Source: Chloroflexota bacterium (GTDB taxonomy: Bacteria; Chloroflexota; Anaerolineae; Promineifilales; Promineifilaceae). From it: 64,000 bases of DNA. Where the stretch lies: assembly GCA_017993775.1 (NCBI GenBank), contig JAGOMA010000005.1, positions 19,561 to 83,560 of the forward strand. The letters are read 5' to 3'. Below, one piece after another: positions 42,670 to 63,296 of this stretch. The notes under the pieces are model-generated. The model searched no databases. It was given only the letters and a program-made list of their open reading frames with translations, and had not been told where the DNA came from. The translations under genes and the position numbers were made by a program. Numbering within the stretch: the first letter of the stretch is position 1; each line of letters starts with the position of its first letter.

Positions 42670-42671
42670 AT

Positions 42672-46125: not shown

Positions 46126-48135
46126 ATGGTTATTGAATTTGGACGCGACGTTTGTGGTGATCTAACCAATACGGAACGACGTGAATGGCTTGTTACCAAC
46201 GGTATCGGCGGCTTTGCCTCCGGCACCATTGCCGGCTTGTTGACCCGTCGTTATCATGGCCTGTTGTTCGTGCCCATGCAGCCGCCCGTTGGCCGCATGT
46301 TGTTTGTGTCTAAAATTGAGGAAACGGCCGTTTACGCCAAACACACCTACCCCCTGCACGTCGATCGCTGGACAGGCGGCCTGCTGGAGCCTAACGGCTA
46401 CCAACAATTAGAACAATTCCAACTCATCGGCACAACCCCCGTGTGGACCTTCGCCTTCGCCGACGCCCAATTGGAAAAACGCATCTGGATGCAGCAAGGC
46501 GCCAACACTACCTACGTTCAGTACCATTTTCGGCGAGGCACAGAACCCCTTACCCTCAACACGCGGGTGCTGGTCAACTACCGCAACGCCCACAACAACT
46601 CCCATGTCGATTCCTGGGATATGAAAATCGAACCCATTAAAAAAGGGCTAAAAGTAACCGCCTACGATGGAGCCATGCCCTATTACCTGCTCAGCGACCG
46701 GGCTGTCGCCACGGCCCAACACGATTGGTACCGCCGCTTCTTCCTCATGCGCGAAGCCAATCGCGGCCTGGATGCCATCGAAGATCATCTACATGCCGGT
46801 GATTTTGAGGTCACTCTCCAGCCGGGTGAATCCGTTACCTTCGTCTTCAGCACCGAAGCCAGACCTAATATGGATGGCGCTGCGGCTTTTGCCGAACGCC
46901 AGCAATACGAGGCCTCCTTGCTGGCCAAAGCCCAATACACCTGCTCCGATCCCGCCTACAAACCATACATCGATCAACTCATCCTGGCGGCCGACCAGTT
47001 TGTGGTTAAACGGCCGTTACCCACCCGCCCCAACGGCCGTTCCATTCTCGCCGGCTACCACTGGTTCAGCGATTGGAGCCGCGACACCATGATCGCCCTC
47101 CCCGGCCTGCTGCTCACCACCGGCCGGTTTGAAGACGCCGCCACCATCCTGCGCACCTACGCCTACTTCATCGACCAGGGCATGCTGCCCAACCGCTTCC
47201 CCGACGGCGCCGACAAACCCGAATACCACGCCGTTGACGCCACCCTCTGGTATTTCCAGGCCATCCACGCCTACTACACAGCCACCAAAGACACCCAACT
47301 CGTCCGCGAACTATTTCCTGCCCTCCAGGACATCATCGCCTGGCACCAGCGCGGCACCCGCTACAACATCGGCGTCGATCCGCAAGATGGGCTGCTGTTC
47401 GCCGGCGAAGAAGGCCACCGCCTCACCTGGATGAACGCCGAAACCGCAGAATGGGTCGTCACCCCGCGCATCGGCAAACCGGTAGAAGTCAACGCCCTCT
47501 GGTACAACGCCCTCTCCATCATGGCTGAATTTGCCGCCATGTTCGGCTACGAAAGCCCCAATTACCAGGAAATGGCCCAAAAAGCCAAAACCGGTTTCGC
47601 CCGCTTTTGGGACACCGAACACAACTATTGCTACGACATCATCGACGTACCGGGGGCAGACGGCAGCAAAACCCACGACGGCCGTCTCCGACCCAATCAA
47701 CTCTTCGCCGTCTCCCTCCCCTACAGCCCTCTGCCGCCCAAACAACAAAAACGAGTCGTCGATGTATGCAGCCATCACCTGCTCACCTCCCACGGGCTGC
47801 GCACCCTCACCCGCAGCGACCCCGGCTACATCGGCAGCTACGGCGGCGACGATTGGCAGCGTTCAGCCGCTTACCATCAGGGCACCGTTTGGAGTTGGCT
47901 CCTGGGACCATTTGTCCAGGCACATCTGCGCGTTTATAATGACCTGGAACAAGCGCAAACCTTCCTGGTCCCCCTGTTTCATCACCTTTCCGACTATGGC
48001 GTTGGCAGTATCGCCGACGTTTTCGATGGCGATCCGCCCTTTACGCCCCGCGGCTGCATTGCCAAAGCCTGGAGCGTGGGCGAATTCCTCCGCATTTGTC
48101 AGATCGCCTTCATGACCATGGAGACGCAAAAGTAG
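46126..48135 (+). CDS. glycogen debranching enzyme-like protein (amylo-alpha-1,6-glucosidase / GDE_C, GH133-like)
   Basis: N-terminal GDE_N-like region plus an (alpha/alpha)6-barrel region (WFSDWSRDTMIALPGLLLTTGRFEDAATIL...). RBS AGGAG. Confidence 0.75.
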   Translation: MVIEFGRDVCGDLTNTERREWLVTNGIGGFASGTIAGLLTRRYHGLLFVPMQPPVGRMLFVSKIEETAVYAKHTYPLHVDRWTGGLLEPNGYQQLEQFQLIGTTPVWTFAFADAQLEKRIWMQQGANTTYVQYHFRRGTEPLTLNTRVLVNYRNAHNNSHVDSWDMKIEPIKKGLKVTAYDGAMPYYLLSDRAVATAQHDWYRRFFLMREANRGLDAIEDHLHAGDFEVTLQPGESVTFVFSTEARPNMDGAAAFAERQQYEASLLAKAQYTCSDPAYKPYIDQLILAADQFVVKRPLPTRPNGRSILAGYHWFSDWSRDTMIALPGLLLTTGRFEDAATILRTYAYFIDQGMLPNRFPDGADKPEYHAVDATLWYFQAIHAYYTATKDTQLVRELFPALQDIIAWHQRGTRYNIGVDPQDGLLFAGEEGHRLTWMNAETAEWVVTPRIGKPVEVNALWYNALSIMAEFAAMFGYESPNYQEMAQKAKTGFARFWDTEHNYCYDIIDVPGADGSKTHDGRLRPNQLFAVSLPYSPLPPKQQKRVVDVCSHHLLTSHGLRTLTRSDPGYIGSYGGDDWQRSAAYHQGTVWSWLLGPFVQAHLRVYNDLEQAQTFLVPLFHHLSDYGVGSIADVFDGDPPFTPRGCIAKAWSVGEFLRICQIAFMTMETQK

Positions 48136-48236
48136 GTTCCAATTCACAAAAAGGATTCGCCGATTGGCGGAGGTCGGCAGCGCGTAACCGGACAGCGGTA
48201 ACAAACCAGATCCAAACTCTTTCTTAAGGAATTTAC

Positions 48237-49487
48237 ATGCAGCAGTTTTTTCTTAACCAGCTCGAACAAAGATTTGTCCGTTACGTACAGATCGATACGC
48301 AAAGCGACGAAAAGGGAACGGCCGTTCCCAGCACCGAGAAACAGCTTGATTTATTGCGCTTGCTGGCCGATGAGATGCGCGCCCTGGGCGTAGAAGATGT
48401 CCTCCTCACCGATTACGCCTGCGTAATGGGAACCATTCCGGCCACCATGCCCGCCGCTGACATCCCCACCGTCGCTTTTCTGGCCCACGTGGATACCGCC
48501 CCGGCGTTTAGCGGCACGGCCGTTAAACCCCTCATTCACCGCAAGTACGACGGCCGTCCCATCACCCTGCCCGACGATCCCACCCAGGTTCTCAACGCCG
48601 CCAACTCCCCCGAACTGGCCGGTAAGATTGGCGAAGACGTCATCACCGCCAGCGGCACAACGCTACTGGGCGCCGACGACAAGGCCGGCGTAGCCATCAT
48701 CATGACCATGGCCGAACACCTGCTGGCCCACCCGGAAATCCCCCACGGCCCTATCCGTCTTTGCTTCACTCCCGACGAAGAAATCGGCCAGGGCGTGGGA
48801 CGCATGAACCTGGACGACCTGGCCGCCGATGTAGCCTACACCCTGGACGGCGGCGACGCCGGCGAAGTGACCTACGAAACCTTCTCCGCCGACAAAGCTG
48901 TGGTAACGCTTACCGGCGTCTCCACCCACCCGGGCACGGCCAAAGGGGTGCTGGTCAACGCCCTGACGTTGGCCTCCAACCTGATCCAGCAGCTGCCGCA
49001 AGACAGCCACACGCCGGAGACGACACACGGCCGTCAGGGATTCATCTTCCTCTACAGCCTGCAGGGCACGGCCGCCGCCGCCAACCTGCAATTTATCCTA
49101 CGCGACTTCGAAGTGGAAGGCTTGCAAGCCTACGGCGACCAGATTCGCGCCGTCGCTGCCCACATTCAGGCCGCCGAACCCCGTGCGCGCATCGAAGTAG
49201 CCATCACGCCGCAGTACCGCAACATGCGCTACTGGCTGGAAAAAGACAAAACCCCCGTGGAGATGGCCGAAAAAGCCCTGGCGCGGGTCGGCATCCCCGT
49301 CATTTCGCAGCCCATTCGCGGCGGCACGGACGGCTCCTGGCTGACGGCCAAAGGGCTGCCCACGCCCAACCTCTTCACCGGCATGCACAACTGCCACGGC
49401 CCGCTGGAGTGGGTGACGCTGCAAGACATGGCCCGCGCCACCGAGGTCTGCGTGCATCTGGCCCAGGTCTGGGCCGAAGCCGGCTAA
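48237..49487 (+). CDS. pepT: peptidase T (tripeptide aminopeptidase, M20B)
   Basis: FVRYVQIDTQSDE..., HVDTAP, GADDKAGVA and TPDEEIG metal-ligand motifs typical of PepT. Confidence 0.85.
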   Translation: MQQFFLNQLEQRFVRYVQIDTQSDEKGTAVPSTEKQLDLLRLLADEMRALGVEDVLLTDYACVMGTIPATMPAADIPTVAFLAHVDTAPAFSGTAVKPLIHRKYDGRPITLPDDPTQVLNAANSPELAGKIGEDVITASGTTLLGADDKAGVAIIMTMAEHLLAHPEIPHGPIRLCFTPDEEIGQGVGRMNLDDLAADVAYTLDGGDAGEVTYETFSADKAVVTLTGVSTHPGTAKGVLVNALTLASNLIQQLPQDSHTPETTHGRQGFIFLYSLQGTAAAANLQFILRDFEVEGLQAYGDQIRAVAAHIQAAEPRARIEVAITPQYRNMRYWLEKDKTPVEMAEKALARVGIPVISQPIRGGTDGSWLTAKGLPTPNLFTGMHNCHGPLEWVTLQDMARATEVCVHLAQVWAEAG

Positions 49488-49671
49488 GCTTGCCCCAGAG
49501 TGGTCCAATCTCCTTGCGGAGTAAAATTAAATGGTACTGTTATAAGGGCGACCCGATGGGTCGCCCGGTTTGCGTTTTGGGCCAGCGGGCTATTCACTGC
49601 TACCACCAAGCCCTATCGAAATGCGGTATAATCCGCAGCCAATAAGACCCAACAAAACGAGGCAACCAGCC

Positions 49672-50841
49672 ATGAGCATAGCCATTGATTCAACTTATAC
49701 CGTGCAAACGTTAACCGACCTGGTGCAAATCAATTCCGTCAACCCGGAATTATCGCCGGAGGGGGCGGGCGAAACGGCCGTCGCCGCCTACGTCGCCCAG
49801 GCGCTGCGCACAATGGGTCTGGAAGTGACCACCTACGACCTTGGCCCCAGACGGATGAACGTGGTGGGCGTGCTGACAGGGACGGGCAACGGCCGTGCCC
49901 TGCTCCTGAACGCCCACATGGACACGGTGGGCGTGGGCGGCATGGTTAATCCCTTTGGCGCGGTGATGCGCGACGGCCGTTTATACGGCCGTGGCGCGCA
50001 AGACATGAAGGGCAGCCTGGCCGCCATGATCGCCGCCGTCAAAGCCCTGGTCGATGGCGGGGTGCAGTTGGCCGGGGATGTGCTGCTAACGGCCGTGGCC
50101 GACGAAGAATACGCCAGCATCGGCACAGACGATCTCGTGCGCCACGTCACCGCCGACGCCGCCATCGTCACCGAACCCACCGATATGAGCCTCTGCCGCG
50201 CCCATCGCGGCTTCATCTGGTTCGAAGTGGAAACGATTGGCCGCGCCGCCCACGGCAGCCGCTACACCGAAGGCGTCGACGCCATCACCCATATGGGCCG
50301 CTTCCTGGTAGAGCTGGAAGCATTGGGGCAGGAACTGCTGCAGCGGCCGCCCCACCCGCTGGCCGGACCACCCTCCATCCACGCCTCGCTGCTGCAAGGC
50401 GGCAGCGAACTCAGCGTCTATCCGGCGCGCTGCACCCTGAAACTGGAACGGCGCACCATCCCCGGCGAGACGGTGGCCCAGGCCACGGCCGAACTCCAGG
50501 CGCTCATCGACCGGTTGGCGGCGGCTGATCCTGATTTTCGGGCGACGGTACGGCCGTTTTTCGACCGCGAGCCGTTTGAGGTTGCCGCCGACGCGCCGAT
50601 TGTGCAGGCGCTGGCCCAGGCAGGCACGGCCGTTTTGCGCCAGCCGCCCGCCCACACCGGAGCCACCTTCTGGACCGACGCCGCCATCCTGGCAGCCGCA
50701 GGCATAGACACTGTGCTGATGGGACCTATCGGGGCCGGGCTGCATAGTGACGAAGAGTGGGTTGAGGTACAATCCGTGCTGGATCTGGCGCAAATTTTAG
50801 CGGAAACGGCCGTCAACTTTTGCAAATTACCTATAGACTAG
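49672..50841 (+). CDS. M20 family metallopeptidase (ArgE/DapE-like deacylase)
   Basis: NAHMDTV, GAQDMKG and ADEE motifs. Start chosen at MSIAIDS; the ORF track extends 34 codons upstream. Confidence 0.8.
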   Translation: MSIAIDSTYTVQTLTDLVQINSVNPELSPEGAGETAVAAYVAQALRTMGLEVTTYDLGPRRMNVVGVLTGTGNGRALLLNAHMDTVGVGGMVNPFGAVMRDGRLYGRGAQDMKGSLAAMIAAVKALVDGGVQLAGDVLLTAVADEEYASIGTDDLVRHVTADAAIVTEPTDMSLCRAHRGFIWFEVETIGRAAHGSRYTEGVDAITHMGRFLVELEALGQELLQRPPHPLAGPPSIHASLLQGGSELSVYPARCTLKLERRTIPGETVAQATAELQALIDRLAAADPDFRATVRPFFDREPFEVAADAPIVQALAQAGTAVLRQPPAHTGATFWTDAAILAAAGIDTVLMGPIGAGLHSDEEWVEVQSVLDLAQILAETAVNFCKLPID

Positions 50842-50879
50842 AGACCGGAGGCTCGTCCAGTCTCCATATTCATCGACCT

Positions 50880-51893
50880 ATGACGCAACAAAGCCGAATG
50901 AAAGAACAAAAAACAGCCCGCCGGCGGCAAGAAATGCGCGCCAGTTTACTGCTGCCCGTCGGCATCACCTTCGTCGTCTGGCTGGCGGGGCTGGTGGCCT
51001 ATTTACTGCTGCCAGGGCAGTTTTATGCCGTCGTTACCCTGCTCGTCGGGCTGGGGATGTTCATTTTTCTGTTTATCTGGACGCGCAACGCCACGCGGCG
51101 GGTGCGCCGTCTGGCTATTTTGCTGGCCGTTCCGGCGCTGATTGGCATCGCCCTGGGCATGGTTTACGGCAGCGCCACCTACACGCTGCTGGGCGTAGGG
51201 GTGTCGATGATTTTGCTGGTCCTACAACGGGTCATCGAAACGCCGATCTCGTTTCGGTTTGCGCTGCGCCATTTCCAGAACGGCCGTATCGAAGCCGCCC
51301 TCGATCTCGTCAACCGGGCCATCAACGCCCGGCCGGAATACTGGCAATCTTACCAGCTGCGGGCCATGATTTACCTGACCAAATTGGACTTTTTGCGCGC
51401 CGAAAAAGACGCCCTGGCAGCCATCGAGCGCAACCCCAAAGCCCACCCCGCCCTGAACACCCTCGGCCAGACCTACCTGGCCGAAGAACGGTTTGCCGAG
51501 GCGGCGGAGGTATACGGCCGTGCCCTTGACCTGGCCCCCAGTTACGCCCTCTACTACTACCACCTGGGGCTGGCGCAGTACCGTCTGGAGCAGTTTGACG
51601 CCGCCGCCGACTCGTTGGCCTCGGCCACCCAAAGCACCCTGCCCATCGTCGAATACGACCTGCAAACCTATTACTATCTGGGGCGCAGCCTGGAAAATCT
51701 CGGCGAAACGGATCTGGCGGCGGAAGCCTTCACGGAAATGGCCAAATTTACCGCCGGCCTCTGGCCGCTCCAACGGCAGATGGCCAACCAACCCGACTAC
51801 CCCCACCTGGCCCACATGCGCGCCGATCTGGCTGATCTGTCCCAACGTCTGCCCGCAGAAACGTCAGACCAGCCAAAGCCAACCAGACCCTAA
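50880..51893 (+). CDS. membrane-anchored TPR-repeat protein
   Basis: Four hydrophobic helices followed by TPR-like repeats (YWQSYQLRAMIYL..., ALNTLGQTYL..., YYYHLGLAQY...). Confidence 0.55.
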   Translation: MTQQSRMKEQKTARRRQEMRASLLLPVGITFVVWLAGLVAYLLLPGQFYAVVTLLVGLGMFIFLFIWTRNATRRVRRLAILLAVPALIGIALGMVYGSATYTLLGVGVSMILLVLQRVIETPISFRFALRHFQNGRIEAALDLVNRAINARPEYWQSYQLRAMIYLTKLDFLRAEKDALAAIERNPKAHPALNTLGQTYLAEERFAEAAEVYGRALDLAPSYALYYYHLGLAQYRLEQFDAAADSLASATQSTLPIVEYDLQTYYYLGRSLENLGETDLAAEAFTEMAKFTAGLWPLQRQMANQPDYPHLAHMRADLADLSQRLPAETSDQPKPTRP

Positions 51894-52015
51894 GGGTTTG
51901 GTTCCTGAATAGTTAGACCTTCTGGGCCTCAAACCCTGAGGGTCTTCCCGGACCCTCAGGGTTTTGCTCATGAATAACCAGACCTTCTGGGACTCAAACC
52001 CTGAGGGTCTTACCA
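51893..52015. repeat. two tandem REP-like hairpins (family A: GACCCTNAGGGTTT ... AAACCCTGAGGGTCTT)
   Basis: Each copy is stem GACCCT(A/C)AGGGTTT, a ~36-nt loop containing AGACCTTCTGGG, then AAACCCTGAGGGTC. The same stem occurs at 9378-9436, 18696-18737 and 24700-24740. Confidence 0.6.
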
Positions 52016-52046
52016 GAAAAACTTAAACATTTACCAGGAATTTATT

Positions 52047-52706
52047 ATGCAACTTTACATGATTCGTCACGGTCAAAGCTATGTCAATCTACCGGATTGG
52101 GACAAAGGCAACATGGACGCCGGGCTGACCAACCTGGGCCAACAACAGGCGGCCGCCCTGGCAAAATGGCTGCCCGACCACCTGACCCACGTGGACGCCC
52201 TCTATGCCAGCACCATGAAACGGGCGCAAGAAACGGCCGCGCCGCTGGCCGCCGCCTACGGCCTGACCATTCAGCCGGATGATCGCTTGCGCGAGATTGG
52301 CAACAACCGCCTGGACCACACCCCCTGGCCGAGTGATGGTTTGCCGGAATACAGCGATTATTGGGGATCGGAACGGCCGTTTTCCTCCATTACTCCCGAC
52401 TACGACAACGGCGAAAGCCTGATGCACTTCCGCGTGCGCGTTGGCATGTTCATCGAAAGCCTCATCGAAAAACACCGCAGCGAAATCATCGTGGCTGTCT
52501 GCCACGGCGGCGTCATCGAGCTAACCTACGACCACGTCTTCAACATTGGCCCCTGGCGGCGCTGCGAAGTATGGACCAAAAACACTGGCATCACCCGTTT
52601 CGAGCTGGTGGAACACCCCACCCGCGAAACCTGGCGGCTGCACTACCACAGCCGCGCCGAACATCTTGCCAACTTAAACATGCCAGCCAGTAAGACGACA
52701 AATTAA
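52047..52706 (+). CDS. histidine phosphatase family protein (phosphoglycerate mutase-like)
   Basis: MIRHGQS catalytic RHG motif and a downstream His (CHGG). Confidence 0.8.
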
Positions 52707-52811
52707 TCTCGACAGCGTTTCACCTGAAATCCGAATTGCGTTATACTGATAAGGGGACTGGAAAATTCCTTCCTTCAATCTTCATTCTACAAAACCTACC
52801 GGAGAAGCTGC

Positions 52812-54440
52812 ATGGCAAAAAGCGAACCATTATCCAATGTAGACGCCGCCTGGCTGGGCATGGAAGACCCAACCAACCTCATGATGGTGACCGGCATCCT
52901 GACCTTCAAAGAGGTCGTAGAACTGGAAGTCATCAAAGAAGTGCTGCGTAAACGTTTCCTGAAATTTGATCGCTTCACCCAACGCATCGTGCAAAATCGC
53001 CTGCCGCTGGCTGCGCCCTATTGGGAAGATGATGAAGATTTCGACCTCAACGCCCACATCCACCGCATTGCTCTGCCTGCTCCTGGCAATCAGGCTGCGC
53101 TTCAAGAACTCGTCAGCGACCTGATGAGCACGCCGCTGGACTTCACCAAACCACCCTGGCAAATGCATCTGGTGGAAAATTTTGGCGAAGGCTGCGCGGT
53201 GATTGTCCGCCTGCACCATGCCGTAGCCGATGGGATGGCTCTCATCTACGTCCTGCTGTCGCTGACCGATATGACGCCAGAAGCTTCGCTGAACCATCCT
53301 GAAGTAGTTGCAGAGCCAAAAGCGGCGGGCGCGCGCGGCGGGATGGTGGGCGCGCTGTTTAAGCAGGCGGGTTCGACCCTGCGGACGACACGCCGCCTGA
53401 CCGGCCGCGTCGTCAACGAAGGGCTGGAAACCTTGAGCAATCCTTCTCGGGCCATGGATCTGGCCATTCAGGGAACGGACGCGGCCGTTGCCGCCGGCCG
53501 CCTGGTCTTTCGCACACCCGATCCGCCAACCATTTTCCGGGGCGAATTAGGCGTCTCTAAACGCGCTGCCTGGTCCAAGCCCCTGCGCTTAAAAGAAGTC
53601 AAAGCCATCAAAAGCATCACCGGCACAACGGTGAACGACGTGTTGATTGCCGCCATGGTGGGCGGGCTGCGCCGCTATATGCTGGCGCGAAATCAGACGG
53701 TCGACGGCCTCAATTTCCGCGCGGCCGTGCCGGTAAATTTACGCAAACAAGAAGAGATGGGCACGCTGGGCAATAAATTTGGCATTGTGTACCTGTCCTT
53801 GCCGGTGGGCATTGAGGATCCGTTTGATCGCTTGCAGGTGATACACAAGCGCATGGATGAGCTGAAAAACACGCCGGAAGCGGCGGTAGCCATTGGCATC
53901 TTGAACGCGATTGGCATGTCGCCTCCGGAGGTGCAGGCGCAGTCGGTGTCTATGTTTGCCAGCAAGGCCACGGCCGTTATGACCAACGTCCCCGGCCCGC
54001 CCATCCCACTCTATTTGGCCGGTAAAAAGATTGAAAACCTGATGTTTTGGGTTCCGCAAGCCGGCCGCGTGGCGTTGGGCATTTCCATTCTCAGCTACGC
54101 CGGCAAGGTGTATCTGGGCGTGAACACCGATACCGGCCTGGTTCCAAACCCGGATGAAATTATCCATTATTTTTATGAAGAGTTTGAGGCGTTGTTAGAC
54201 CTGGTGCGTCAGATCGAAGAGGAAGCGGCCGCCAAAGCGCCGATCACGGCCCAGATTAATATCAATCTGGCCAACGCCGCCGACCTGGACGTTTTGCCGG
54301 GCATTGGCCGGACGATGGCGGAGCGGATTGTGGCCTACCGTGAGGAAAACGGCCGTTTCACCACCATTCAAGATCTCATCCACGTCACCGGTATCAACGA
54401 ATCCAAATTAGGGCTCATTAAGGACCACATCACAATTTAA
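52812..54440 (+). CDS. wax ester synthase/diacylglycerol acyltransferase (WS/DGAT) fused to C-terminal ComEA-type helix-hairpin-helix domain
   Basis: HHxxxDG active site (HHAVADG), the WS/DGAT N- and C-domains, and a C-terminal ~65 aa ININLANAADLDVLPGIGRTMAERIVAYREENGRFTTIQDLIHVTGINESKLGLIKDHITI matching ComEA HhH_3. Confidence 0.8.
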   Translation: MAKSEPLSNVDAAWLGMEDPTNLMMVTGILTFKEVVELEVIKEVLRKRFLKFDRFTQRIVQNRLPLAAPYWEDDEDFDLNAHIHRIALPAPGNQAALQELVSDLMSTPLDFTKPPWQMHLVENFGEGCAVIVRLHHAVADGMALIYVLLSLTDMTPEASLNHPEVVAEPKAAGARGGMVGALFKQAGSTLRTTRRLTGRVVNEGLETLSNPSRAMDLAIQGTDAAVAAGRLVFRTPDPPTIFRGELGVSKRAAWSKPLRLKEVKAIKSITGTTVNDVLIAAMVGGLRRYMLARNQTVDGLNFRAAVPVNLRKQEEMGTLGNKFGIVYLSLPVGIEDPFDRLQVIHKRMDELKNTPEAAVAIGILNAIGMSPPEVQAQSVSMFASKATAVMTNVPGPPIPLYLAGKKIENLMFWVPQAGRVALGISILSYAGKVYLGVNTDTGLVPNPDEIIHYFYEEFEALLDLVRQIEEEAAAKAPITAQININLANAADLDVLPGIGRTMAERIVAYREENGRFTTIQDLIHVTGINESKLGLIKDHITI

Positions 54441-54478
54441 AGACGACTGGCATATGACAATCTTCAGGAGAGGAGCAA

Positions 54479-56125
54479 ATGGCTAAACGAGAAGCGCTTT
54501 CCAGTGTAGACGCCGCCTGGTTGGGCATGGAAGACCCCACCAACCTCATGATGGTCTCCGGTATTTTGACCTTTGATGAGGTATTGGATTTTGATGAATT
54601 TATCCAGGTCGTGGTACACCGCTGGCTGAGATTTGACCGCTTCCGGCAGCGCGTGGTGCATCCGAAACGGCCGTTAGCCGGCCCGCAGTGGGAGTTCGAC
54701 CCCAATTTCAACATCAACGCCCACGTTCACCGCGTCGCCTTGCCGGCCCCCGGCGACTACCACACGCTGCAAAACATGATCAGCGACCTGATGAGTACGC
54801 CCCTCGATTACAGCAAGCCTTTGTGGCAGTGTCATTTCATCGAAGGCTACGAACAGGGCACGGTCGTCATGTCGCGGCTGCATCACGCCATCGCCGATGG
54901 CATCGCCCTGATGTACGTGCTGCTGTCGATGGCCGACACATCGCCGGAAGCTTCTCTGAACCACCCCACCGTACAAACCGATGAAACCCGTCGCGAGCGC
55001 AGCGGTCGGTTTGGTTTGTTGGGGTCGCTGGCGCGGCAGGCGTCGACGGCCGTACACACCGCCCGCGACGTCACCGGCCTCCTCGTCCATGAAGGGCTAG
55101 AAACCGTCAACAATCCCTCTCACGCCGTCGATAGGGCCGTGCAAGGCACCGAAGCGGCGCTGGCCGCCGGCCGTCTCATCTTCCGCACGCCTGATCCCAA
55201 GACATTGTTCAAGGGCGAGTTGGGCGTCGCCAAACGCGCATCCTGGTCCAGACCACTGTCCTTGGCCGAAGTGAAAGCCATCAAAAACGTCACCGGCGGC
55301 ACCGTCAACGATGTGTTAGTCTCGGCCATGACCGGCGCGGTGCGCGCCTACATGCAGCAGCGCGGCGCGCCTGTGGACGGGGTAGCCTTCCGGGCGGCCA
55401 TGCCGGTGAATATCCGGCCGCCTGAAAAAATGGAAGAGCTGGGCAACCAATTTGGCATCATTTATCTGACGCTGCCTGTGAACATAGGCGATCCATTGGA
55501 CCGCCTGGTTGAGGTGCGGCGGCGGATGGAAGAATTGAAAAACACCCCCGAAGCGGTGGTCGCCTTTGGCATTCTGAAGGGGATTGGCATGTCGCCGGCG
55601 GAAGCGCAGACCCGTATGGTAGATATGTTTGGCAGCAAGGCAACGGTGGTAATGACCAACGTGCCAGGGCCGCAAATGCCTCTGTATATTGCCGGGAAAG
55701 AATTGGCCGGAATTATGGCCTGGGTGCCGCAATCTGGCCGGGTGGCGCTGGGACTCAGCATCATCAGCTACAATGGCAAAGTGTTCGTCGGCGTAAACAC
55801 CGACGAAGGGCTGGTCCCAGACCCGGATGCCATCATGGATGCATTCTATGCCGAGTTTGACAACTTGCTGGAGTTGGCGCGGCAGGTAGAGGCGTTGCCC
55901 AAGCAGGCGGCTCCGGCGAAAGGGGCAAATGTGGCGCTGGTAAATGTGAACACGGCCGTTCTGGCCGACCTGGAAATCTTACCGGGGGTTGGAGCCAGCA
56001 TCGCGCAGCGGATCATTGCCTACCGCGACGAGCATGGCCCCTTCCCCACCGTCGAATCGCTGACTCAGGTGACCGGCATTGGGAGCAAAAAATTACAGCT
56101 TTTTGCCGACCAGATTACTGTGTAA
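54479..56125 (+). CDS. WS/DGAT acyltransferase fused to C-terminal ComEA-type HhH domain (tandem paralog)
   Basis: HHAIADG and the same architecture. C-terminus VALVNVNTAVLADLEILPGVGASIAQRIIAYRDEHGPFPTVESLTQVTGIGSKKLQLFADQITV. About 60% identical by eye to the upstream copy. Confidence 0.8.
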   Translation: MAKREALSSVDAAWLGMEDPTNLMMVSGILTFDEVLDFDEFIQVVVHRWLRFDRFRQRVVHPKRPLAGPQWEFDPNFNINAHVHRVALPAPGDYHTLQNMISDLMSTPLDYSKPLWQCHFIEGYEQGTVVMSRLHHAIADGIALMYVLLSMADTSPEASLNHPTVQTDETRRERSGRFGLLGSLARQASTAVHTARDVTGLLVHEGLETVNNPSHAVDRAVQGTEAALAAGRLIFRTPDPKTLFKGELGVAKRASWSRPLSLAEVKAIKNVTGGTVNDVLVSAMTGAVRAYMQQRGAPVDGVAFRAAMPVNIRPPEKMEELGNQFGIIYLTLPVNIGDPLDRLVEVRRRMEELKNTPEAVVAFGILKGIGMSPAEAQTRMVDMFGSKATVVMTNVPGPQMPLYIAGKELAGIMAWVPQSGRVALGLSIISYNGKVFVGVNTDEGLVPDPDAIMDAFYAEFDNLLELARQVEALPKQAAPAKGANVALVNVNTAVLADLEILPGVGASIAQRIIAYRDEHGPFPTVESLTQVTGIGSKKLQLFADQITV

Positions 56126-56130
56126 GCAGC

Positions 56131-56183
56131 GTGAAGCGTGATGCGTGATGCGTGCCCCAAAACGCATCACGCATCACGCTTCA
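56131..56183. terminator. perfect 20-bp-arm inverted repeat (family C) between convergent genes
   Basis: GTGAAGCGTGATGCGTGATGCG-tgccccaaaa-CGCATCACGCATCACGCTTCA. Confidence 0.6.
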
Positions 56184-56750
56184 AAGACCAGACATATCGC
56201 GCAGGTAGCGGCGGGCGCCGGCGCGATTCAGCTCTTCTTCCAGCCGCAGTTTGTAGATTTCCAGGTTTTCTAACGGCCGTTTCAGATTATAACTTTCCAC
56301 CTGCTTATTAATCTGCGCCGCTTTCTCATCCAATTTTCGCACTTCGTCATCCCAACCAATCACCAGCCCGCTGCGAATCCCTTCGTCCTGGACAAACCGA
56401 TATTCCTGTTCATAACGCCGCCAGACGCGGATTACCTGCACGCGAAAAGCGTCGATTTGCTCTTGAATGCCGTTGCGTTGGGCCAGCCAGGCGGGCACCA
56501 TCTGGTTATCTTTCAACAGGCTGTTGGCTATTTCGTTGTTAGCGCTGTAGGGATTTTGGTTCAGGTTCAGCGGTTTGCCTTTGCCGGGAAGATTATCGAA
56601 CAAGCCTTGCTGACGGCCGTCTTCAATCAAATCCTCAATCAAATTTGACCGGTCAAAACGCAACCGCAGCCGGTGCTCAATCAGCCGCTCACGCTCCTCT
56701 TGCTGCGCCTGCAATTCTTCCGGTGTTTCCTTGCGTTCGTCGTCCATCAT
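56181..56750 (-). CDS. DUF1992 (DnaJC28-like) domain protein
   Basis: LIEDGRQQGLFDNLPGKGKPLNL core typical of DUF1992. Confidence 0.6.
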   Translation of the reverse strand: MMDDERKETPEELQAQQEERERLIEHRLRLRFDRSNLIEDLIEDGRQQGLFDNLPGKGKPLNLNQNPYSANNEIANSLLKDNQMVPAWLAQRNGIQEQIDAFRVQVIRVWRRYEQEYRFVQDEGIRSGLVIGWDDEVRKLDEKAAQINKQVESYNLKRPLENLEIYKLRLEEELNRAGARRYLRDMSGL

Positions 56751-56914
56751 TCATCCTCGCTGCCATGTAAAAACTGGTCTTATTGTAACTGCACGGCCGT
56801 TTGTGCCCGCCAGATACTAATCCGACTTTTAGCGAATACAAAACAGGATTGGACGGATCGCAAAAAAAAGGGAAAATTACCCGCCACTTTCGCGGGTGAA
56901 CACAAACCACCCAA

Positions 56915-57820
56915 TTGAATCGGAGAATAACTTTGCAGAAAACAAAATGGCACGCTTACGAAACGATCTATCATGGATATCACACCGTTACAGGCACCCT
57001 GAAGGTAACCCAAGGCATTCTCAGCCCGCGCCTGCGAAACCGACGCGATATTTTTGTCTATTTGCCCCCGTCTTATGCCCACAGCGACCGGCGCTATCCG
57101 GTGCTCTACATGCACGACGGCCAAAATCTCTTTGATAACGCCCTTAGTTTTGCCGGTGAATGGCGCGTTGATGAAACCATGGAACGGCTGGCCTATGAAC
57201 AACAATTAGAAGCGATTGTTGTGGGCATTCCCAATATGGGCCAGCACCGGATGGACGAGTACAGCCCATTCCATCACGTCGGGTACGGCGGCGGCAAAGG
57301 GGATGAATACCTGGGGTTTATCGTCCACACCCTCAAACCGCTGATCGACCAGGATTTTCGCACCCTGCCAGACAAGCGGCACACCGGCATCATGGGATCG
57401 TCCATGGGCGGGCTGATTAGTTTGTACGCCTTTTTTGCTCATACGGCCGTCTTCGGTTTCGCCGGAGTGATGAGTCCATCGCTCTGGTTTGCCGATTACG
57501 CCATGCTGGCCTACGTGGGCGAAGCTGAATTTAACCCCGGCCGCCTTTATCTGGATGCCGGCACGCGCGAATACGGCGACGCCAACCATGAAACCACTCG
57601 CCCACGCACCCAATCGCGGCGCTACTATGCCAGCGTGCGCCGCCTGAAGCGGATTTTGGTCAACAAAGGCTACCGGCCACAGCGCGACCTGCTGCATGTG
57701 GAAGAAAAATGGGCAGCGCACAACGAAGCCGCCTGGGAACGACGCCTGCCGTCCGCGATTGAGTTTTTTTTACGCGACAAAGATTATACAAACGGAACCG
57801 GTGAACTGTTGTCGAATTGA
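56915..57820 (+). CDS. esterase family alpha/beta hydrolase (esterase D / enterochelin-esterase-like)
   Basis: VYLPPSY...YPVLYMHDG and nucleophile elbow GSSMGG. The track start at 56915 is TTG with no clear SD, so the start is uncertain. Confidence 0.65.
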   Translation: MNRRITLQKTKWHAYETIYHGYHTVTGTLKVTQGILSPRLRNRRDIFVYLPPSYAHSDRRYPVLYMHDGQNLFDNALSFAGEWRVDETMERLAYEQQLEAIVVGIPNMGQHRMDEYSPFHHVGYGGGKGDEYLGFIVHTLKPLIDQDFRTLPDKRHTGIMGSSMGGLISLYAFFAHTAVFGFAGVMSPSLWFADYAMLAYVGEAEFNPGRLYLDAGTREYGDANHETTRPRTQSRRYYASVRRLKRILVNKGYRPQRDLLHVEEKWAAHNEAAWERRLPSAIEFFLRDKDYTNGTGELLSN

Positions 57821-57855
57821 GGCTTGCTGGACAATCGTTCGGTTTTGCTTTGGCA

Positions 57856-57888
57856 AGATAGGACCAATCTTGGAGATTGGTCCTATCT
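57856..57888. repeat. perfect 33-nt palindrome (family B: AGATAGGACCAATCT-TGG-AGATTGGTCCTATCT)
   Basis: Related GATTGGTCC/GGACCAATC cores occur at 29385-29420 and 37845-37890 (the latter followed by (CTCCAAT)x3). Confidence 0.6.
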
Positions 57889-58026
57889 AAACCACGGACA
57901 TATTGGCGAGCGCGGCCCAACTTTTGCCGCCCGATTGCGTACAGAATCGTGCCCACCCCGGCCGCGCAGCGCCGAGGTTACAAAATCCGCCTGACCGGGT
58001 AATAAACTGAGAGAATCGGGAATCTT

Positions 58027-58845
58027 ATGGCCGCTTCAACAAATTCCAAGTTTAATATACACATGCTACGGCAACAATTAAACCAACTGTTCGCCTCAAT
58101 TTTGCCTGTTGCGCCACCAGGAACAGATAAACCTGTGCGGACAACGGCCGTTACCCGCCGCCGACTCCTCATGATTATCACGCTCATTGTTGCCGGCGTA
58201 TTGCTGTGGCAAATCCGCCAACCAGCTATGGAACTGCTCTCCCTGGTCGGCGACCAGGAAGCCGTCAGCGCCTTCCTGAAAAGTTACGGCGCATTAGGCC
58301 CCTTGGTGCTGGCTGTCGCGCAGTTGGTGCAAGTCATTATCGCGTTTATCCCCGGACACGTTTTTCTCATCGCCGCTGGATACGTGTATGGCTTCTGGCC
58401 CGCCCTGGTTCTGAACATGGTGTGCATTGTCGCCGCCAGTCAACTGGCGTTTGCCCTGGCGCGGTGGATGGGACGGCCGTTAGTCGAACGCCTGGTAGAC
58501 AAAGAACTGCTCGATCGCTGGTATCGCATCGGCGAAAAACAAGGCTTCTTCTTTTTCACCATCGCCTTCGTCCTACCCGTCTTCCCCACCGATGCAATGA
58601 ATTTTGTTGGCGGATTATCCGGCATCTCCGGCGCAAAATTCCTGGCCGCCAGCATTTTGGGACGGCTGCCCAGCGCCATCATACTCACCATGATCGGCGC
58701 TTACGGCTTAGAATTCAGCCGGTCCACCTGGGGAACCATTGGCGCGTTAGCCGGAATCGCCTTAATTACGGGTCGGATTCTCGTCGCCCGCATCGAAGCC
58801 CGCCACACCATCGCCAACCAAACGGAAGACGACGAGCAGACGTAG
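58027..58845 (+). CDS. TVP38/TMEM64 (DedA/SNARE-associated) family membrane protein
   Basis: Polytopic protein with the family motif region (FIPGHVFLIAAGYVYGFWPAL..., FPTDAMNFVGGLSGISGAKFL). Confidence 0.7.
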   Translation: MAASTNSKFNIHMLRQQLNQLFASILPVAPPGTDKPVRTTAVTRRRLLMIITLIVAGVLLWQIRQPAMELLSLVGDQEAVSAFLKSYGALGPLVLAVAQLVQVIIAFIPGHVFLIAAGYVYGFWPALVLNMVCIVAASQLAFALARWMGRPLVERLVDKELLDRWYRIGEKQGFFFFTIAFVLPVFPTDAMNFVGGLSGISGAKFLAASILGRLPSAIILTMIGAYGLEFSRSTWGTIGALAGIALITGRILVARIEARHTIANQTEDDEQT

Positions 58846-58940
58846 GCTCTAGGCTGCTAGCTCCAGGCTGTACTATGAAAATCTGTTAGATAACAACATG
58901 GGGACTGCGGGGTACAAATACCGGGCGGAATCCACCGGCA

Positions 58941-61900
58941 TCACTCCCGACTTGTTCTTTCCCCGTGGCCCAGCAGAGAGTCTGCCCCTAACGCCGCTTG
59001 TGCCCTGACCACCACAGTATCCAGCGACACATCCAACATTGCATTTAAAGCCAACCCCAATTCCTCCGGCGGCAACTCCTGGCTCTTTTCCGCCAACCAG
59101 GCTTTAATCCACTCTCTCGCCTCCCAAAATGTCGCCAAATGCGAGCGTACATAAGCGGCCAGGGCGATGGCTTCCGGGCGCTGCCCTTCTGCATAACGTA
59201 ATTCAACCATGCCAGCCAACACAAACAGCGTTAAGCCCTTGTCGCCCTGCATCATCGCCTGCTCCATGGCCTGCGAAAGCAGCCCGTTTGCCTGGGTTAA
59301 ATCCCCCCGCCGCACCCAAACGCGAGCCAGTTGACACAACACATAAGCCCTGATCCATGGATTATGGGCATCGGTCAGAAATGTCAAACTCTGCTCATAC
59401 TGGCTTTGCGCCGCCAGCCAATCCTGCCGGCCAAAGCCCAGCTCCCCCAGACCGCGATAGTAATAGCCCAGACCCACCGACATATGCTGCGCCTGGAAAA
59501 TGGCGTGAGCCTTTTCATACGCTTCACTGGCGGCAGCCAAATCTCCCTGAATGCGCTGTAGTTCGCCCCATTCCCAATGCGCCCAGGCCAGGCCGCCCTC
59601 ATCGTTGATCTTGGCGAAGCCGTCAATGCTTTTTTGCCGTAAGGCCAGCGATAGATCAAAATCGCCCAAACGGGCAGCCGCGATACTTTGCCAGGAGTAC
59701 ATGCTGGCCACCATTTTTTGTTCGCCGACCGATGCATACAGCTCGGCCGATGCCTGGTATTGCTGAATGCTCTGGCGATACTGGCCGGCAGAGATGCTGG
59801 TGTCGCCCATGTTGTACAAGACGGAGGCCGCGCCGCGCGGCACATTGAGCGCCTGATAGATGCGCTGGCATTCCTCTAGCAGGCGAAAGGCTTCGTCGTA
59901 ATTGCGGCGGATGGCTTCCAGGTAGCCCATCGTTTGCAGATTTTGGGCCAATTGCAGCCGATTGCCGATGTGGCGGCTGAGGGCGATGGATTCGCCCAGG
60001 TATTGGCGTGCTTCGTCCCAGCGGGTGAGGTCGATGAGTGAGCCGCCGTAAATGTTGAGAGCCACGGCCGTTTCCCACGCATCCCCCTTTTCACGCAGCA
60101 GGGCCAGGCAGCGGGTAAACATGGCCAGCCCGGCGTCCATGTCCAGATGCCAGGCGCTGATCAGCGCCAGGTAGGCATAAGGCAGCGTTGCCTGCACAGA
60201 TTCCTCGATCTTGGGCAACAGCGCCAGGGCGCGCTGGCACAGGGCGCGTGTTTTCTGGCTGGTGAGTTCGTAATTAAGCGACCAGGTACTCAGCACCAGG
60301 AGGTAAAACAGCGTGCGCCAGGTTTCGGGCATATCGTCGCCGCCGGCCACGGCCGTTTCCAACCGTTCCACGCCCACGCTCAACAAGGCATGAAAATCGC
60401 TCAACAAGGCGCGCGCCGAGTAAAAAATCAGCAGGCCGTCCAGCGAAGCATTCACGCGGGCGTACTCTCCCTGCGCCAGCGCCCACAGCCAGGCAGCGCG
60501 GATGTTGTCTTCCTCCAATTCCACCAGGTCGAAGGTTTCTTTTTGATTGGGGCCTTTCATGGCCTCGCCCTGCTCGCGCAGAAATTGGTTGAAATAGACG
60601 CTGTGCCGGTCGGAGACGGCCTGGAGCGTTGCGGGCACGGCCGTTAACCGCTCATGGGCATACTGGCGCAGCAGCTCGTGAATCTGGAAACGGCCGTTTT
60701 CCTCCCGCCACAACAGCGATTTGGTCACCAGACCCATCAGGTCGCGCAGCGACGCGCCGGTAACTGCCTGCGCCGCCTGCCGCGAAAAACTGCCATAAAA
60801 CACCGAGCAGGCGGCAAAAATTTGCTGTTCCGGCGGCGTCAGCAGCCGCCAGGAATAATCAAACACCGCCCGCAAACTGCGCTGCCGTTCCGGCACGTCA
60901 TGCTGCGTCGTTTCCAGAAAATCCAGGCTAGAGGCCATCTCCGTGATAATTTCGGCCGGGGTTAGCAGCGCCAGCCAACCGGCGGCCAATTCGATGCCCA
61001 GCGGCAGACCATTGACGAGTTGGCAAATGCGAATGATCGCCATCTGGTTTTCGCGCGTCAGGGCAAAATCGGGCGAGGTGCGCTGCGCGCTCTGCACAAA
61101 CAGTTTGACGGCGCTGTACTCAGCGGCGTTGGCCTGGGCAGCCAGTTCCGGCGGCGGCGTTTGCATGCCGGCCACCTGGTAAACCTGTTCGCCGCGCACG
61201 TTCAGGCGCAGGCGCGAGGTGGCCAGGATTTTCACGCCGGGCGCGGCCGTCAGAATGTCGGCCGGCAAATGCACCCCTTCGCCAGACAGCAAATGCTCAA
61301 AATTGTCCAGCACCAGCAGCAGCGATTGGTGGCGCAAAATATCCAACAGCTGCTGGCGAGGAGATTCGCTTTCGGCAAAAAAGTTCAGGCGCAGAGCGGA
61401 GGTGAGCGCCGCCAGAATGAAATCAGGCGCGGTGAGGGGGGCCAGAGGCACAAAATAGACGCCATCGGGGAAAACGGCGCGCTCGCCGTTGACGTACCGT
61501 CTGGCCAACTGCAAGGCCAGGCGCGTTTTGCCGCTGCCGCCGGGACCAACCAGCGTCAGCAGGCGGCAGGCGGGGTCGGCAAAGAGCCGGTTGATTTCCG
61601 CCAGTTCGTCCTGCCGCCCGACAAAGGGAGTGAGTTGGGCGGGCAGGTAGGAGCGCGATGGTTTGGGCGGCACGGCCGTGTCCCCTTCAACCACCGCAAT
61701 TCGTTCACCAGAAGGTGGTTGGGTTGGTGTGGCGGCCCATTGACCCGCTTTAATCTGGCCCAGCAATGTCATCGTTTCCGGTTCCGGGGCGATGTCTAGC
61801 TCCTCAGCCAGGGTTTGCACGCAAAAATCGTACTGGCGAATTGCCTCGGCGCGCTGGCCCATTTGGGCGTAGAGGCGCATCAGCAGCCGGTGGGCGGCTT

Positions 61901-62459
61901 CGTTCAACAGGTCCAGAGAGAGCCAGCGCCGGGCGTGGGCTACGGCCGTTTCCCAGGCTCCTTTTTCCCCCGCTGCCTGCGCCAGACGCTGCAAAGCGTC
62001 GCCAAATTGGCGGCGCAACCGTTCCGCTTGATCGTACTGCCAGGCGTCAAAATCGGGCGCGTCGCGCAGAGTAAACCCGGCCATGAAGTCGCCCCGGTAG
62101 AGGGCAACGGCCGTTTCCAACCCTGTCTCATCCCCGGTGGCACAGCCGGATTGAAAAGCCGCCACATCAACCCAGGCGTCAGGGTGGGGCAAAAAAGCGA
62201 CCTGATCGCGCTCTACCAGCAGCCGGCCTTCGCCGATCATCTGGTTGATTTCCCACAAGGTGCGACGCAGGTAGGCCAGGGCGCGTGATTGGTCGGCTTC
62301 CGGCCAGAAGCGGGCGGCCAGGGCTTCGCGGCTGTGGGGCACGGCCGTTACAGACAGGTAAGCCAACAGCGCCACCGCCTTCCGTCGATCGGTTCCCGCC
62401 GCCTGTCCACCCAGGCTAATTTGTGCCGCGCCAAGAAAATAAAGCCGTAGTTCAGCCAA
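58941..62459 (-). CDS. SARP/AfsR-family (OmpR-type wHTH + BTAD) - NB-ARC ATPase - TPR large regulatory protein
   Basis: N-terminal wHTH region (LRLYFLGAAQISLGG...ALLAYL...FWPE), BTAD helices, a P-loop (LVGPGGSGKTRLALQLARR) and NB-ARC, then about 500 aa of TPR. Start placed at in-frame TTG 62459-62457 (GAGGTGG upstream). The longer track ORF overlaps a well-supported divergent gene. Confidence 0.75.
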   Translation of the reverse strand: MAELRLYFLGAAQISLGGQAAGTDRRKAVALLAYLSVTAVPHSREALAARFWPEADQSRALAYLRRTLWEINQMIGEGRLLVERDQVAFLPHPDAWVDVAAFQSGCATGDETGLETAVALYRGDFMAGFTLRDAPDFDAWQYDQAERLRRQFGDALQRLAQAAGEKGAWETAVAHARRWLSLDLLNEAAHRLLMRLYAQMGQRAEAIRQYDFCVQTLAEELDIAPEPETMTLLGQIKAGQWAATPTQPPSGERIAVVEGDTAVPPKPSRSYLPAQLTPFVGRQDELAEINRLFADPACRLLTLVGPGGSGKTRLALQLARRYVNGERAVFPDGVYFVPLAPLTAPDFILAALTSALRLNFFAESESPRQQLLDILRHQSLLLVLDNFEHLLSGEGVHLPADILTAAPGVKILATSRLRLNVRGEQVYQVAGMQTPPPELAAQANAAEYSAVKLFVQSAQRTSPDFALTRENQMAIIRICQLVNGLPLGIELAAGWLALLTPAEIITEMASSLDFLETTQHDVPERQRSLRAVFDYSWRLLTPPEQQIFAACSVFYGSFSRQAAQAVTGASLRDLMGLVTKSLLWREENGRFQIHELLRQYAHERLTAVPATLQAVSDRHSVYFNQFLREQGEAMKGPNQKETFDLVELEEDNIRAAWLWALAQGEYARVNASLDGLLIFYSARALLSDFHALLSVGVERLETAVAGGDDMPETWRTLFYLLVLSTWSLNYELTSQKTRALCQRALALLPKIEESVQATLPYAYLALISAWHLDMDAGLAMFTRCLALLREKGDAWETAVALNIYGGSLIDLTRWDEARQYLGESIALSRHIGNRLQLAQNLQTMGYLEAIRRNYDEAFRLLEECQRIYQALNVPRGAASVLYNMGDTSISAGQYRQSIQQYQASAELYASVGEQKMVASMYSWQSIAAARLGDFDLSLALRQKSIDGFAKINDEGGLAWAHWEWGELQRIQGDLAAASEAYEKAHAIFQAQHMSVGLGYYYRGLGELGFGRQDWLAAQSQYEQSLTFLTDAHNPWIRAYVLCQLARVWVRRGDLTQANGLLSQAMEQAMMQGDKGLTLFVLAGMVELRYAEGQRPEAIALAAYVRSHLATFWEAREWIKAWLAEKSQELPPEELGLALNAMLDVSLDTVVVRAQAALGADSLLGHGERTSRE

Positions 62460-62640
62460 TTTCCACCTCGTTCCAGGGCAAATTATAACGCAAAAGGCGG
62501 GCAACTGGCCGAGTTGGGCAAAGTCGCTCGCCGAAACGTTTTCCGAAACGGCCGTCGCAACGAAGGGGAAACGGCCGTCTCCTAAACTGTCTATATCGAT
62601 AACAAACACATCGAAAACTGACAAAAGGAGCGAGGACATC

Positions 62641-63120: not shown

Positions 63121-63296
63121 CACATTTTGGCAATCCCTACTGGAAACCGCATCCGTGAGCAATCGGGGGTGCGGTTTTTTGATTTGAGAGCTGTCCCAGC
63201 GCTCCTATCAGCCCATACAGGATTGACATCTGCCGTGATTGGGGTAGCATTTGCCCATTAACCACACTGATTCAGCATATGTTTAGGAGAATTCCC

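Follow-up and report, generated by a model that had tools for sequence, protein, structure and literature searches.

Wax-ester/triacylglycerol synthases of Ardenticatenaceae-type Chloroflexota with a ComEA-family helix-hairpin-helix domain in an exchangeable C-terminal position

Two adjacent genes in a 64,000-nucleotide stretch of DNA from a Chloroflexota bacterium (contig JAGOMA010000005.1 of assembly GCA_017993775.1; the whole stretch is referred to as the window) encode wax-ester/triacylglycerol synthases (WS/DGAT), each of which ends in a helix-hairpin-helix (HhH) module of the HHH_3 family, to which the competence protein ComEA also belongs. Domain and profile searches, structure prediction and comparison of homologous loci were combined to characterize this fusion. 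In related enzymes the position of the HHH_3 module is occupied by other, unrelated modules or is empty, and in the lineage of the window both gene copies appear to have changed their tail type after the duplication that produced them. The enzyme and the tail each come from known families; what is new is that they are combined and, most of all, that the tail slot is exchangeable. As for function, we tentatively favor the reading that the tail is a weak, multivalent, sequence-independent nucleoid or polyanion tether carried by a lipid synthase.

The first gene (paralog 1; 52812..54440, + strand; 542 aa; MBP6470203.1) and the second (paralog 2; 54479..56125, + strand; 548 aa; MBP6470204.1) were delineated from their open reading frames (ORFs) and from Pfam and NCBIfam matches, supplemented for paralog 2 by an AlphaFold2 (AF2) model. 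An earlier note, made from the sequence alone, had placed two tandem ORFs, each a WS/DGAT with an HhH tail, at 52812-56125, and both coordinates and domains proved to be exactly as it gave them. The two proteins are 59% identical over their full length by pairwise alignment, and their only name at NCBI is “wax ester/triacylglycerol synthase family O-acyltransferase”. The genes are separated by a spacer of 38 nt (54441..54478, + strand), which contains an AGGAGAGGAG Shine-Dalgarno-like motif at 54466-54475 and in which a terminator scan detected no terminator-like site; they are probably co-transcribed. The overall counts from the promoter and terminator scan of the scanned region were no better than those from shuffled sequence and were not used as evidence.

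By family and by predicted fold, both genes encode cytoplasmic WS/DGATs. The two Pfam domains of this family, PF03007 (E 2.5e-43 for paralog 1 and 2.1e-46 for paralog 2) and PF06974 (4.6e-41 and 1.8e-40), are found above their gathering cut-offs, and the full-length model TIGR02946 scores 417.9 and 410.1 bits, respectively, against a cut-off of 309.95. The HHxxxDG catalytic motif that the earlier note had read in both paralogs is present as HHAVADG in paralog 1 (53214..53234, + strand) and HHAIADG in paralog 2 (54881..54901, + strand), at aa 135-141 of either translation, and its columns H135, H136, D140 and G141 are invariant in an alignment of 60 homologs. The enzyme body of paralog 2 is modeled with confidence (mean pLDDT 81.4, pTM 0.75, for the whole AF2 model) and has the two-domain condensation-like fold of the solved WS/DGATs; its top Foldseek matches are 6chj (7e-28, TMt 0.76) and 7nxg (3.4e-24), followed by condensation domains of non-ribosomal peptide synthetases.

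The C-terminal module is recognized as HhH by two curated models. PF12836 (HHH_3) scores 66.8 bits at aa 481-541 of paralog 1 and 68.3 bits at aa 486-547 of paralog 2, against a gathering cut-off of 27, and 72 and 73.7 bits on the isolated tails; TIGR00426, which describes the HhH repeat region of ComEA, scores 58.3 and 64.9 bits against 53.1. The HhH assignment of the earlier note thus holds. In paralog 1, a linker of approximately aa 469-480 (54216..54251, + strand; EEEAAAKAPITA), delimited by alignment to paralog 2 and by the stop codon of a tail-less ortholog at the same junction, precedes the tail proper (aa 481-542; 54252..54437, + strand), in which column analysis locates hairpins G497-I-G499 and G527-I-N529, Met502 and the conserved basic residues R505 and K532. 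In paralog 2, a long exit helix (aa 449-472) is followed by a flexible linker of approximately aa 473-485 (55895..55933, + strand) and by the tail (aa 486-548; 55934..56122, + strand) with hairpins G503-V-G505 and G533-I-G535, Ile508 and the conserved basic residues R511, K537 and K538. Both tails therefore have the two helix-flanked G-h-G hairpins, GVG and GIG in paralog 2, with a degenerate second hairpin (GIN) in paralog 1; the replacement of G-I-G by G-I-N extends throughout the paralog 1 clade and recurs in domain 2 of EEPD1. The earlier note had described the match to ComEA as almost motif-for-motif: the membership in the same HHH_3 family stands, but the likeness fails at hairpin 2 of paralog 1 and at the hairpin-1 lysine of ComEA, which is gone from both proteins (M502/I508).

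Structure prediction of paralog 2 gave a folded tail (pLDDT 85-94; helices at 495-499, 506-519, 525-530 and 536-545) behind linker residues 476-484 with pLDDT below 50. Because a folded tail follows a disordered linker in this model, the HHH_3 tail is predicted to be an independent module on a flexible tether. Its closest solved chains are EEPD1 (9yi2, 2.9e-17) and ComEA (8dfk, 6.5e-15; 8dss, 7.4e-13), KIF22 and Tex being matched as well, and all solved relatives that match it at E < 1e-3 are nucleic-acid-binding modules. No other protein of the 64-kb window was found to carry the same tail, as would a shared localization tag.

The fusion is recurrent. A survey of the PF03007-PF06974-PF12836 architecture yielded approximately 20 protein clusters (at 90% identity) from independent Ardenticatenaceae assemblies. 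The exact window proteins are present on four contigs and near-identical cluster members on many more (NCBI, ENA, JGI and Logan), and the tandem pair is conserved together with its neighbors in three further loci (L001, L002 and L005). The closest named genome is that of Candidatus Leptovillus affinis, a metagenome-assembled genome (MAG) in which the proteins are matched at 98% identity on a 1.09-Mb contig; further MAGs of Ardenticatenaceae and Chloroflexota contain the same gene pair at 88-97% identity. Ca. Leptovillus grows heterotrophically, as filaments, in activated sludge (PMC10746286). A mis-assembly, which the earlier note had named as a possible refutation, is excluded and an artefact of gene calling disfavored, because the same continuous ORF recurs in multiple independent assemblies, including the 1.09-Mb contig. 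When representative sequences were searched exhaustively for independent fusions in other phyla, with aa 400-548 as a hybrid query, the only sequences that joined both parts were same-clade fragments; this is a weak test, since multi-repeat HHH_3 proteins swamp the ranking and distant fusions would fall below the list cut-off. The earlier note had called the architecture one not known to be described, and the literature search found no paper on a WS/DGAT-HhH fusion; combinations of wax ester synthase with helix-hairpin-helix, ComEA or DNA-binding domain returned no relevant paper either, many subscription journals being outside the coverage.

The C-terminus beyond the conserved core was classified in the 120 best homologs together with the two window proteins (n=122), of which 22 carry an HHH_3 tail of the window type. 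The most frequent tail, in 78 proteins, is a CCCH knuckle (consensus RCQAxTKSGxRCxNRxLDGSxYCxxHQ; mean charge +3.7), one example of which scores 30.3 bits with PF19067 (DUF5763) against a cut-off of 26.3; 13 proteins end in a module of the HHH_5/DUF4332 type (“GIGPKFAERL...AAGI”; 36 and 28.6 bits, both over the cut-off), and the remaining nine, of 466-481 aa, are tail-less. On this comparison of sequences, the C-terminal position is an accessory slot filled by exchangeable modules. A natural variant shows the slot empty: P0041 (469 aa) is a tail-less ortholog of paralog 1 with a genuine TAG stop at the core/linker junction, seen in two independent metagenome samples (4035..4037 in L038 and 3058..3060 in L039), both contigs ending 22-31 nt further on and thereby hiding any second paralog. 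Given this ortholog, the tail is dispensable for the enzyme fold.

Three independent pointers, each of them sub-significant, relate the CCCH knuckle to the CCCH zinc finger by which MCM10/primase binds DNA: the Pfam family zf-primase (E 0.0095), the structure 3ebe in a Foldseek comparison (E 0.59, TM 0.62, 2.6 Å over 35 columns), and 3h15/3ebe in a search of the knuckle profile against PDB (E 0.08). A profile search of a database of 5.8 billion sequences for other protein partners of the knuckle gave no match at E <= 1e-3, and no mention of DUF5763 was found in the literature searched, in which many subscription journals were not covered. For a tail of the HHH_5 type (P0043), the PDB sequence matches are headed by 8yy9, a photosynthetic “reaction center protein O chain” (E 9e-4); DNA polymerase IV and topoisomerase V rank lower, a hint that protein complexes, too, may make use of this HhH subtype. 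Beyond the close homologs, 29 distant WS/DGAT loci were compared, and six of them, belonging to Actinobacteria, Proteobacteria and another Chloroflexi, have Lys/Arg-rich disordered C-termini (L010, L026, L028, L031, L033 and L035); the net charge of their last 50 residues is +6 to +15 in five and a weak +1 in L031, and the C-termini of the other distant enzymes are mostly acidic. The tail of the L026 enzyme contains PRRxKAA-like repeats reminiscent of the MLDS/histone-H1 type.

The history of the slot was read from a neighbor-joining tree of the enzyme core (460 columns, 200 bootstrap replicates). The paralog 2 HHH_3 clade groups with one CCCH clade and the paralog 1 HHH_3 clade with a different CCCH clade, each with 100% bootstrap support, and monophyly of all HHH_3-bearing enzymes receives 0%. 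Correspondingly, the mean core identity of the paralog 2 clade is 71.5% to its CCCH sister vs 60.7% to the paralog 1 clade, and both paralogs are found, in unchanged order, in the CCCH genomes (L004, L006 and L007). Tandem pairs with both ends visible are HHH_3+HHH_3 in L001, L002 and L005 and CCCH+CCCH in L004, L006 and L007, with no mixed pair. As the core phylogeny indicates, the duplication predates the HHH_3 tails, and both copies switched tail type in one lineage. The earlier note had argued that the duplication implies a functional fusion; with the duplication older than the tails, that argument is reversed. It is the switch in both ancient paralogs, together with the matched pairs, that points to selection on the role of the tail, i.e., that the kind of tail matters. 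The HHH_3 tails of the two paralog clades are 50-59% identical, which equals their identity to the best free HHH_3 domains and is compatible with a single as well as a double acquisition of the tail; these free domains belong to proteins with multiple HHH_3 repeats, of which one also has an SLBB domain. Proteins with 2-7 tandem HHH_3 repeats are very numerous (P0121-P0270), some exceeding 1000 aa (P0122, 1199 aa; P0134, 1723 aa; P0158, 2455 aa); among free proteins these are the nearest to the tail, and the majority of them are without the ComEA lysine.

Ratios of nonsynonymous to synonymous substitution rates (dN/dS) were estimated between the window proteins and those of L005, at dS of approximately 0.8-1.3. 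They are 0.06-0.09 in the cores vs 0.18-0.20 in the tails (the latter at dS of approximately 1.2-1.3), and high or noisy in the linkers. By these estimates the tails are under purifying selection, which is looser than that on the enzyme core. This bears on the view that the appended tail is functionless or near-neutral, or that it arose artificially in assembly or gene calling. The repeated gain, swap and loss of tails would suit such a view, as would the higher tail dN/dS, which reaches 0.4-0.7 in close comparisons of paralog 1, where there are very few substitutions. We nevertheless regard it as very improbable: the dN/dS of 0.18-0.20 persists at saturating dS, several tail residues do not vary among the 22 sequences, the AF2 model folds the tail with confidence, and the ORF is continuous in the independent NCBI, ENA, JGI and Logan assemblies.

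Since HHH_3, HHH_5, basic MCM10-type CCCH and Lys/Arg-rich tails share one slot, their common ligand would be a polyanion, most plausibly nucleoid DNA. In the mechanism that we propose, which accords with the localization of storage-lipid synthesis to the nucleoid that the earlier note had considered, the slot module would bind a cellular polyanion weakly and independently of sequence, nucleoid DNA being the most probable one. A single tail would bind poorly by itself, and avidity might come from the many synthases on a nascent lipid body or from an oligomer of the paralogs, whereby the formation of lipid bodies, or the finished bodies, would be anchored to the chromosome. The tether would thus be built into the synthase, in a role parallel to those of MLDS and PhaM/PhaF. 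DNA as the ligand, avidity, and a physiological role, such as partitioning along the filament or DNA protection, are what we infer for this system. A precedent for cooperation of weak modules is EEPD1, in which the flexibly tethered (HhH)2 modules, four per dimer, are needed together for DNA binding (PMC12988330).

Several observations weigh against this tether. In ComEA, a hairpin-1 lysine (K164 in B. subtilis, K166 in Geobacillus, K63 in V. cholerae) is the residue best conserved in the family, as strongly as the HhH signature, and its replacement abolishes the gel shift (K166A) or lowers transformation more than 100-fold (K164A) (PMC9747964). In the 22 fused tails this column holds Leu (11), Met (5), Thr (3) or Ile (3) and in none of them Lys or Arg, the window proteins having Met502 and Ile508; DNA binding is therefore not deducible from homology. 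The same column is Lys or Arg in only 25% of the 473 nearest free HHH_3 domains, and it is Val or Met in the EEPD1 domains. The fused HHH_3 tails are also slightly acidic (mean net charge -1.4 ± 1.3; approximately -2 in the window tails), and isolated (HhH)2 domains of EEPD1 give no stable DNA binding (PMC12988330). Further, DUF5763 has no known function and the resemblance of the knuckle to MCM10 falls short of significance (E 0.08-0.6), protein-complex subunits stand beside DNA enzymes among the top PDB matches of the HHH_5 tail, and a tail-less ortholog exists, so that the tail is not needed for the enzyme fold. Finally, no report of lipid bodies in Ca. Leptovillus was found, the sole study found having looked for glycogen, PHA (polyhydroxyalkanoate) and polyphosphate (PMC10746286).

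Basic residues are nevertheless fixed elsewhere in the fused tails. The +6 position of hairpin 1 is Arg in 21 and Lys in one of the 22 (R505 and R511 in the window), where ComEA has Ala, and the +3 position of hairpin 2 is Lys in all 22 (K532 and K538). The latter corresponds to T196 of the Geobacillus ComEA, which touches a DNA phosphate in the published model (PMC9747964). Lys or Arg at hairpin-2 +2 is confined to the paralog 2 clade (11 of the 22). Net charge and isoelectric point were considered as a proxy for DNA binding and dropped, bona fide HHH_3 domains spanning -10 to +12; because the fused tails lie within this range, tail charge is uninformative.

The loss of the ComEA lysine is among the reasons to consider a somewhat unlikely alternative, akin to the membrane or polyanion binding that the earlier note had named as its second option. 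In it, the tail would bind a polyanionic surface other than DNA, be it RNA, polyphosphate or the anionic phospholipid head groups of either membrane or lipid-body monolayer, and thereby recruit or retain the synthase. WS/DGATs work at the membrane or lipid-body surface, the CCCH knuckles and the distant Lys/Arg-rich tails would bind any polyanion, and the conserved neighbors include a VTT/DedA-like membrane protein. Electrostatic membrane binding is a poor fit to acidic HHH_3 tails and to HHH_5 tails, the charge of which is about neutral, and the solved relatives matched by the HHH_3 tail at E < 1e-3 are all nucleic-acid-binding. As to polyphosphate, it was undetected in situ in filaments of Ca. 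Leptovillus (PMC10746286).

The tail could also, in a reading beyond those of the earlier note, be a protein-protein module without a DNA role, pairing the two paralogs (cf. XPF-ERCC1) or docking to a partner. Matched tail types in the tandem pairs of three HHH_3 and three CCCH genomes agree with this, as do the conserved hydrophobic residue in place of the ComEA lysine and the matches of the HHH_5 tail, which include a reaction-centre subunit, a complex I subunit and, weakly in Pfam, PsbU; moreover, heterodimerization of (HhH)2 domains is documented for XPF-ERCC1 and Mus81-Eme1 (cited in PMC12988330). We consider this explanation unlikely. Matched tails are explained equally well by a shared ligand, one shared partner is improbable for three structurally unrelated modules, the HHH_5-tailed enzymes are single-copy, a tail-less ortholog exists, and the (HhH)2 domains of EEPD1, the closest solved relatives, self-associate negligibly (PMC12988330).

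Extended beyond the window, the nucleoid tether leads to a broader proposal, namely that a C-terminal “anchor slot” is a dedicated feature of the neutral-lipid synthases of Ardenticatenaceae-type Chloroflexota and sporadically occurs in other phyla, with interchangeable nucleic-acid-binding modules (CCCH knuckle, HHH_5, HHH_3 or Lys/Arg-rich tails) by which the synthase would couple the formation of lipid bodies to the chromosome. This would be an unrecognized organizing principle for bacterial lipid droplets, parallel to and independent of MLDS and PhaM. In this general form the proposal is possible yet doubtful.

The genes around the pair are conserved as well. A His_Phos_1 (histidine-phosphatase) gene lies upstream (52047..52706, + strand; PF00300, 120.9 bits), and in all related loci with enough flank, whatever the tail type, such a gene is found directly upstream or two genes away (the window, L001, L002, L005, L006, L038, L039, L040 and L041). 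Downstream, Pfam identifies a DJC28_CD-domain protein (56181..56750, - strand), a PF00756 esterase (56915..57820, + strand) and the VTT/DedA-like membrane protein (58027..58845, + strand). This trio is also downstream in L001, L002, L005 and the divergent HHH_5 locus L041, where it is followed by a DegV gene, and the VTT gene is kept in L006. No family reached its cut-off in an NCBIfam scan of the conserved neighbors. The arrangement suggests a conserved lipid-related gene neighborhood around the WS/DGAT genes, with a functional link to them, and one may speculate that the His_Phos_1 phosphatase supplies diacylglycerol.

Elsewhere the window encodes ordinary housekeeping functions of a chromosome, including PEPCK, DnaK-GrpE-DnaJ, ClpB, G6PD, 6PGD and glycogen debranching. 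Family scans of the 64-kb window found neither a fatty acyl-CoA reductase nor competence genes, and no tRNA gene or Rfam family (at the gathering threshold) was found in 1..64000. Four other regions were noted. A cluster at 13789..18681 comprises a DHH-DHHA2-CBS phosphoesterase, an HTH-WYL-WCX regulator, a DUF218 protein (- strand), a calcineurin-like metallophosphoesterase and a PHP-domain protein, and may be related to nucleotide signaling or repair. At 30984..33831 (- strand), an SPFH/Band 7 protein of unusual length (677 aa) adjoins a YqiJ_N (NfeD-like) membrane protein, which is a typical SPFH-NfeD pair with a large extension. A conserved set of three genes at 34188..37815 encodes a circularly permuted ATP-grasp protein (CP_ATPgrasp_1/2), an Alpha-E domain protein and a transglutaminase-like protein. 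Two long ORFs without a family match (38204..40630, + strand, and 40805..41536, - strand) lie antisense to ClpB (37940..40552) and to a redoxin-like gene (40811..41542), respectively, and are probably shadow ORFs of a GC-rich genome and not genes.

The positioning and inheritance of bacterial lipid bodies are poorly understood, and the few known cases use separate basic-tailed tethers (MLDS; PhaM/PhaF for PHA granules). If the nucleoid tether is real, a synthase-borne tether with three or more exchangeable tails would be a compact and testable model for coupling the synthesis of a storage inclusion to the nucleoid. The natural tail-swap variants would be ready-made for experiments, and neutral-lipid storage is flagged as an overlooked trait of the abundant filamentous Chloroflexota of activated sludge. 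Should the tails bind membranes or partner proteins instead, they would still be a new targeting device in an enzyme family of biotechnological interest.

Compared with the known systems, the cores of the window proteins share both Pfam domains, the HHxxxDG motif, TIGR02946 and the fold with the bacterial WS/DGATs of the AtfA type (Marinobacter, 6CHJ; Acinetobacter AbWSD1, 7NXG), at an identity of only 20-23%. The window proteins differ from 6CHJ and 7NXG (390-411 residues) in an extra extension of approximately 75 residues, made up of the end of the exit helix, the linker and the HHH_3 module, which most of the sampled distant WS/DGATs also lack. With ComEA (8DFK and 8DSS) the window tails have in common two loop-joined HhH motifs in a C-terminal position behind a flexible linker. 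ComEA, however, is an extracytoplasmic protein of DNA uptake with a signal peptide or membrane anchor, whereas the window module sits on a cytoplasmic enzyme, which begins directly with its core (MAKSEPLSNVDAAW...) and lacks a hydrophobic leader. Only the HhH region aligns to the full-length ComEA model TIGR01259, with 61.6 and 65.9 bits against a cut-off of 152.35, and the window tails have Met or Ile for the ComEA lysine (K164 of B. subtilis), with their fixed basic residues elsewhere (Arg at hairpin-1 +6, Lys at hairpin-2 +3). EEPD1 (9YI2; PMC12988330) resembles the window tails in the hydrophobic Val or Met at the ComEA lysine site, in one G-I-N hairpin and in the flexible tether to an enzyme-fold domain; it differs in being a eukaryotic replication-fork protein with N-terminal modules, two per chain and four per dimer, compared with a single C-terminal module per chain in the window.

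The closest functional analogue for the proposed tether is MLDS of Rhodococcus, the Lys-rich C-terminus of which binds DNA non-specifically and links lipid droplets to genomic DNA (PMC5504291). MLDS is a structural droplet protein with a disordered Lys-rich tail of PAKKA repeats, whereas the window proteins are synthases with a folded HhH module, and there is no homology between the two. For carbon-storage inclusions of another kind, PhaM of Ralstonia fixes polyhydroxybutyrate granules to the nucleoid (PMC3556143). As is proposed for the window proteins, the tie between inclusion and nucleoid is made by a C-terminal tail, in PhaM a basic one on a granule-associated protein. PhaF of Pseudomonas likewise is a nucleoid tether of PHA granules. 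PhaM and PhaF belong to a different polymer and a different protein family, and their tether is separate from the synthase; the Lys-rich, histone-H1-like tail of the PAKKA/AAKP type that MLDS, PhaM and PhaF have in common is not present in the window proteins, in which a folded HHH_3 module on the synthase itself would take its place.

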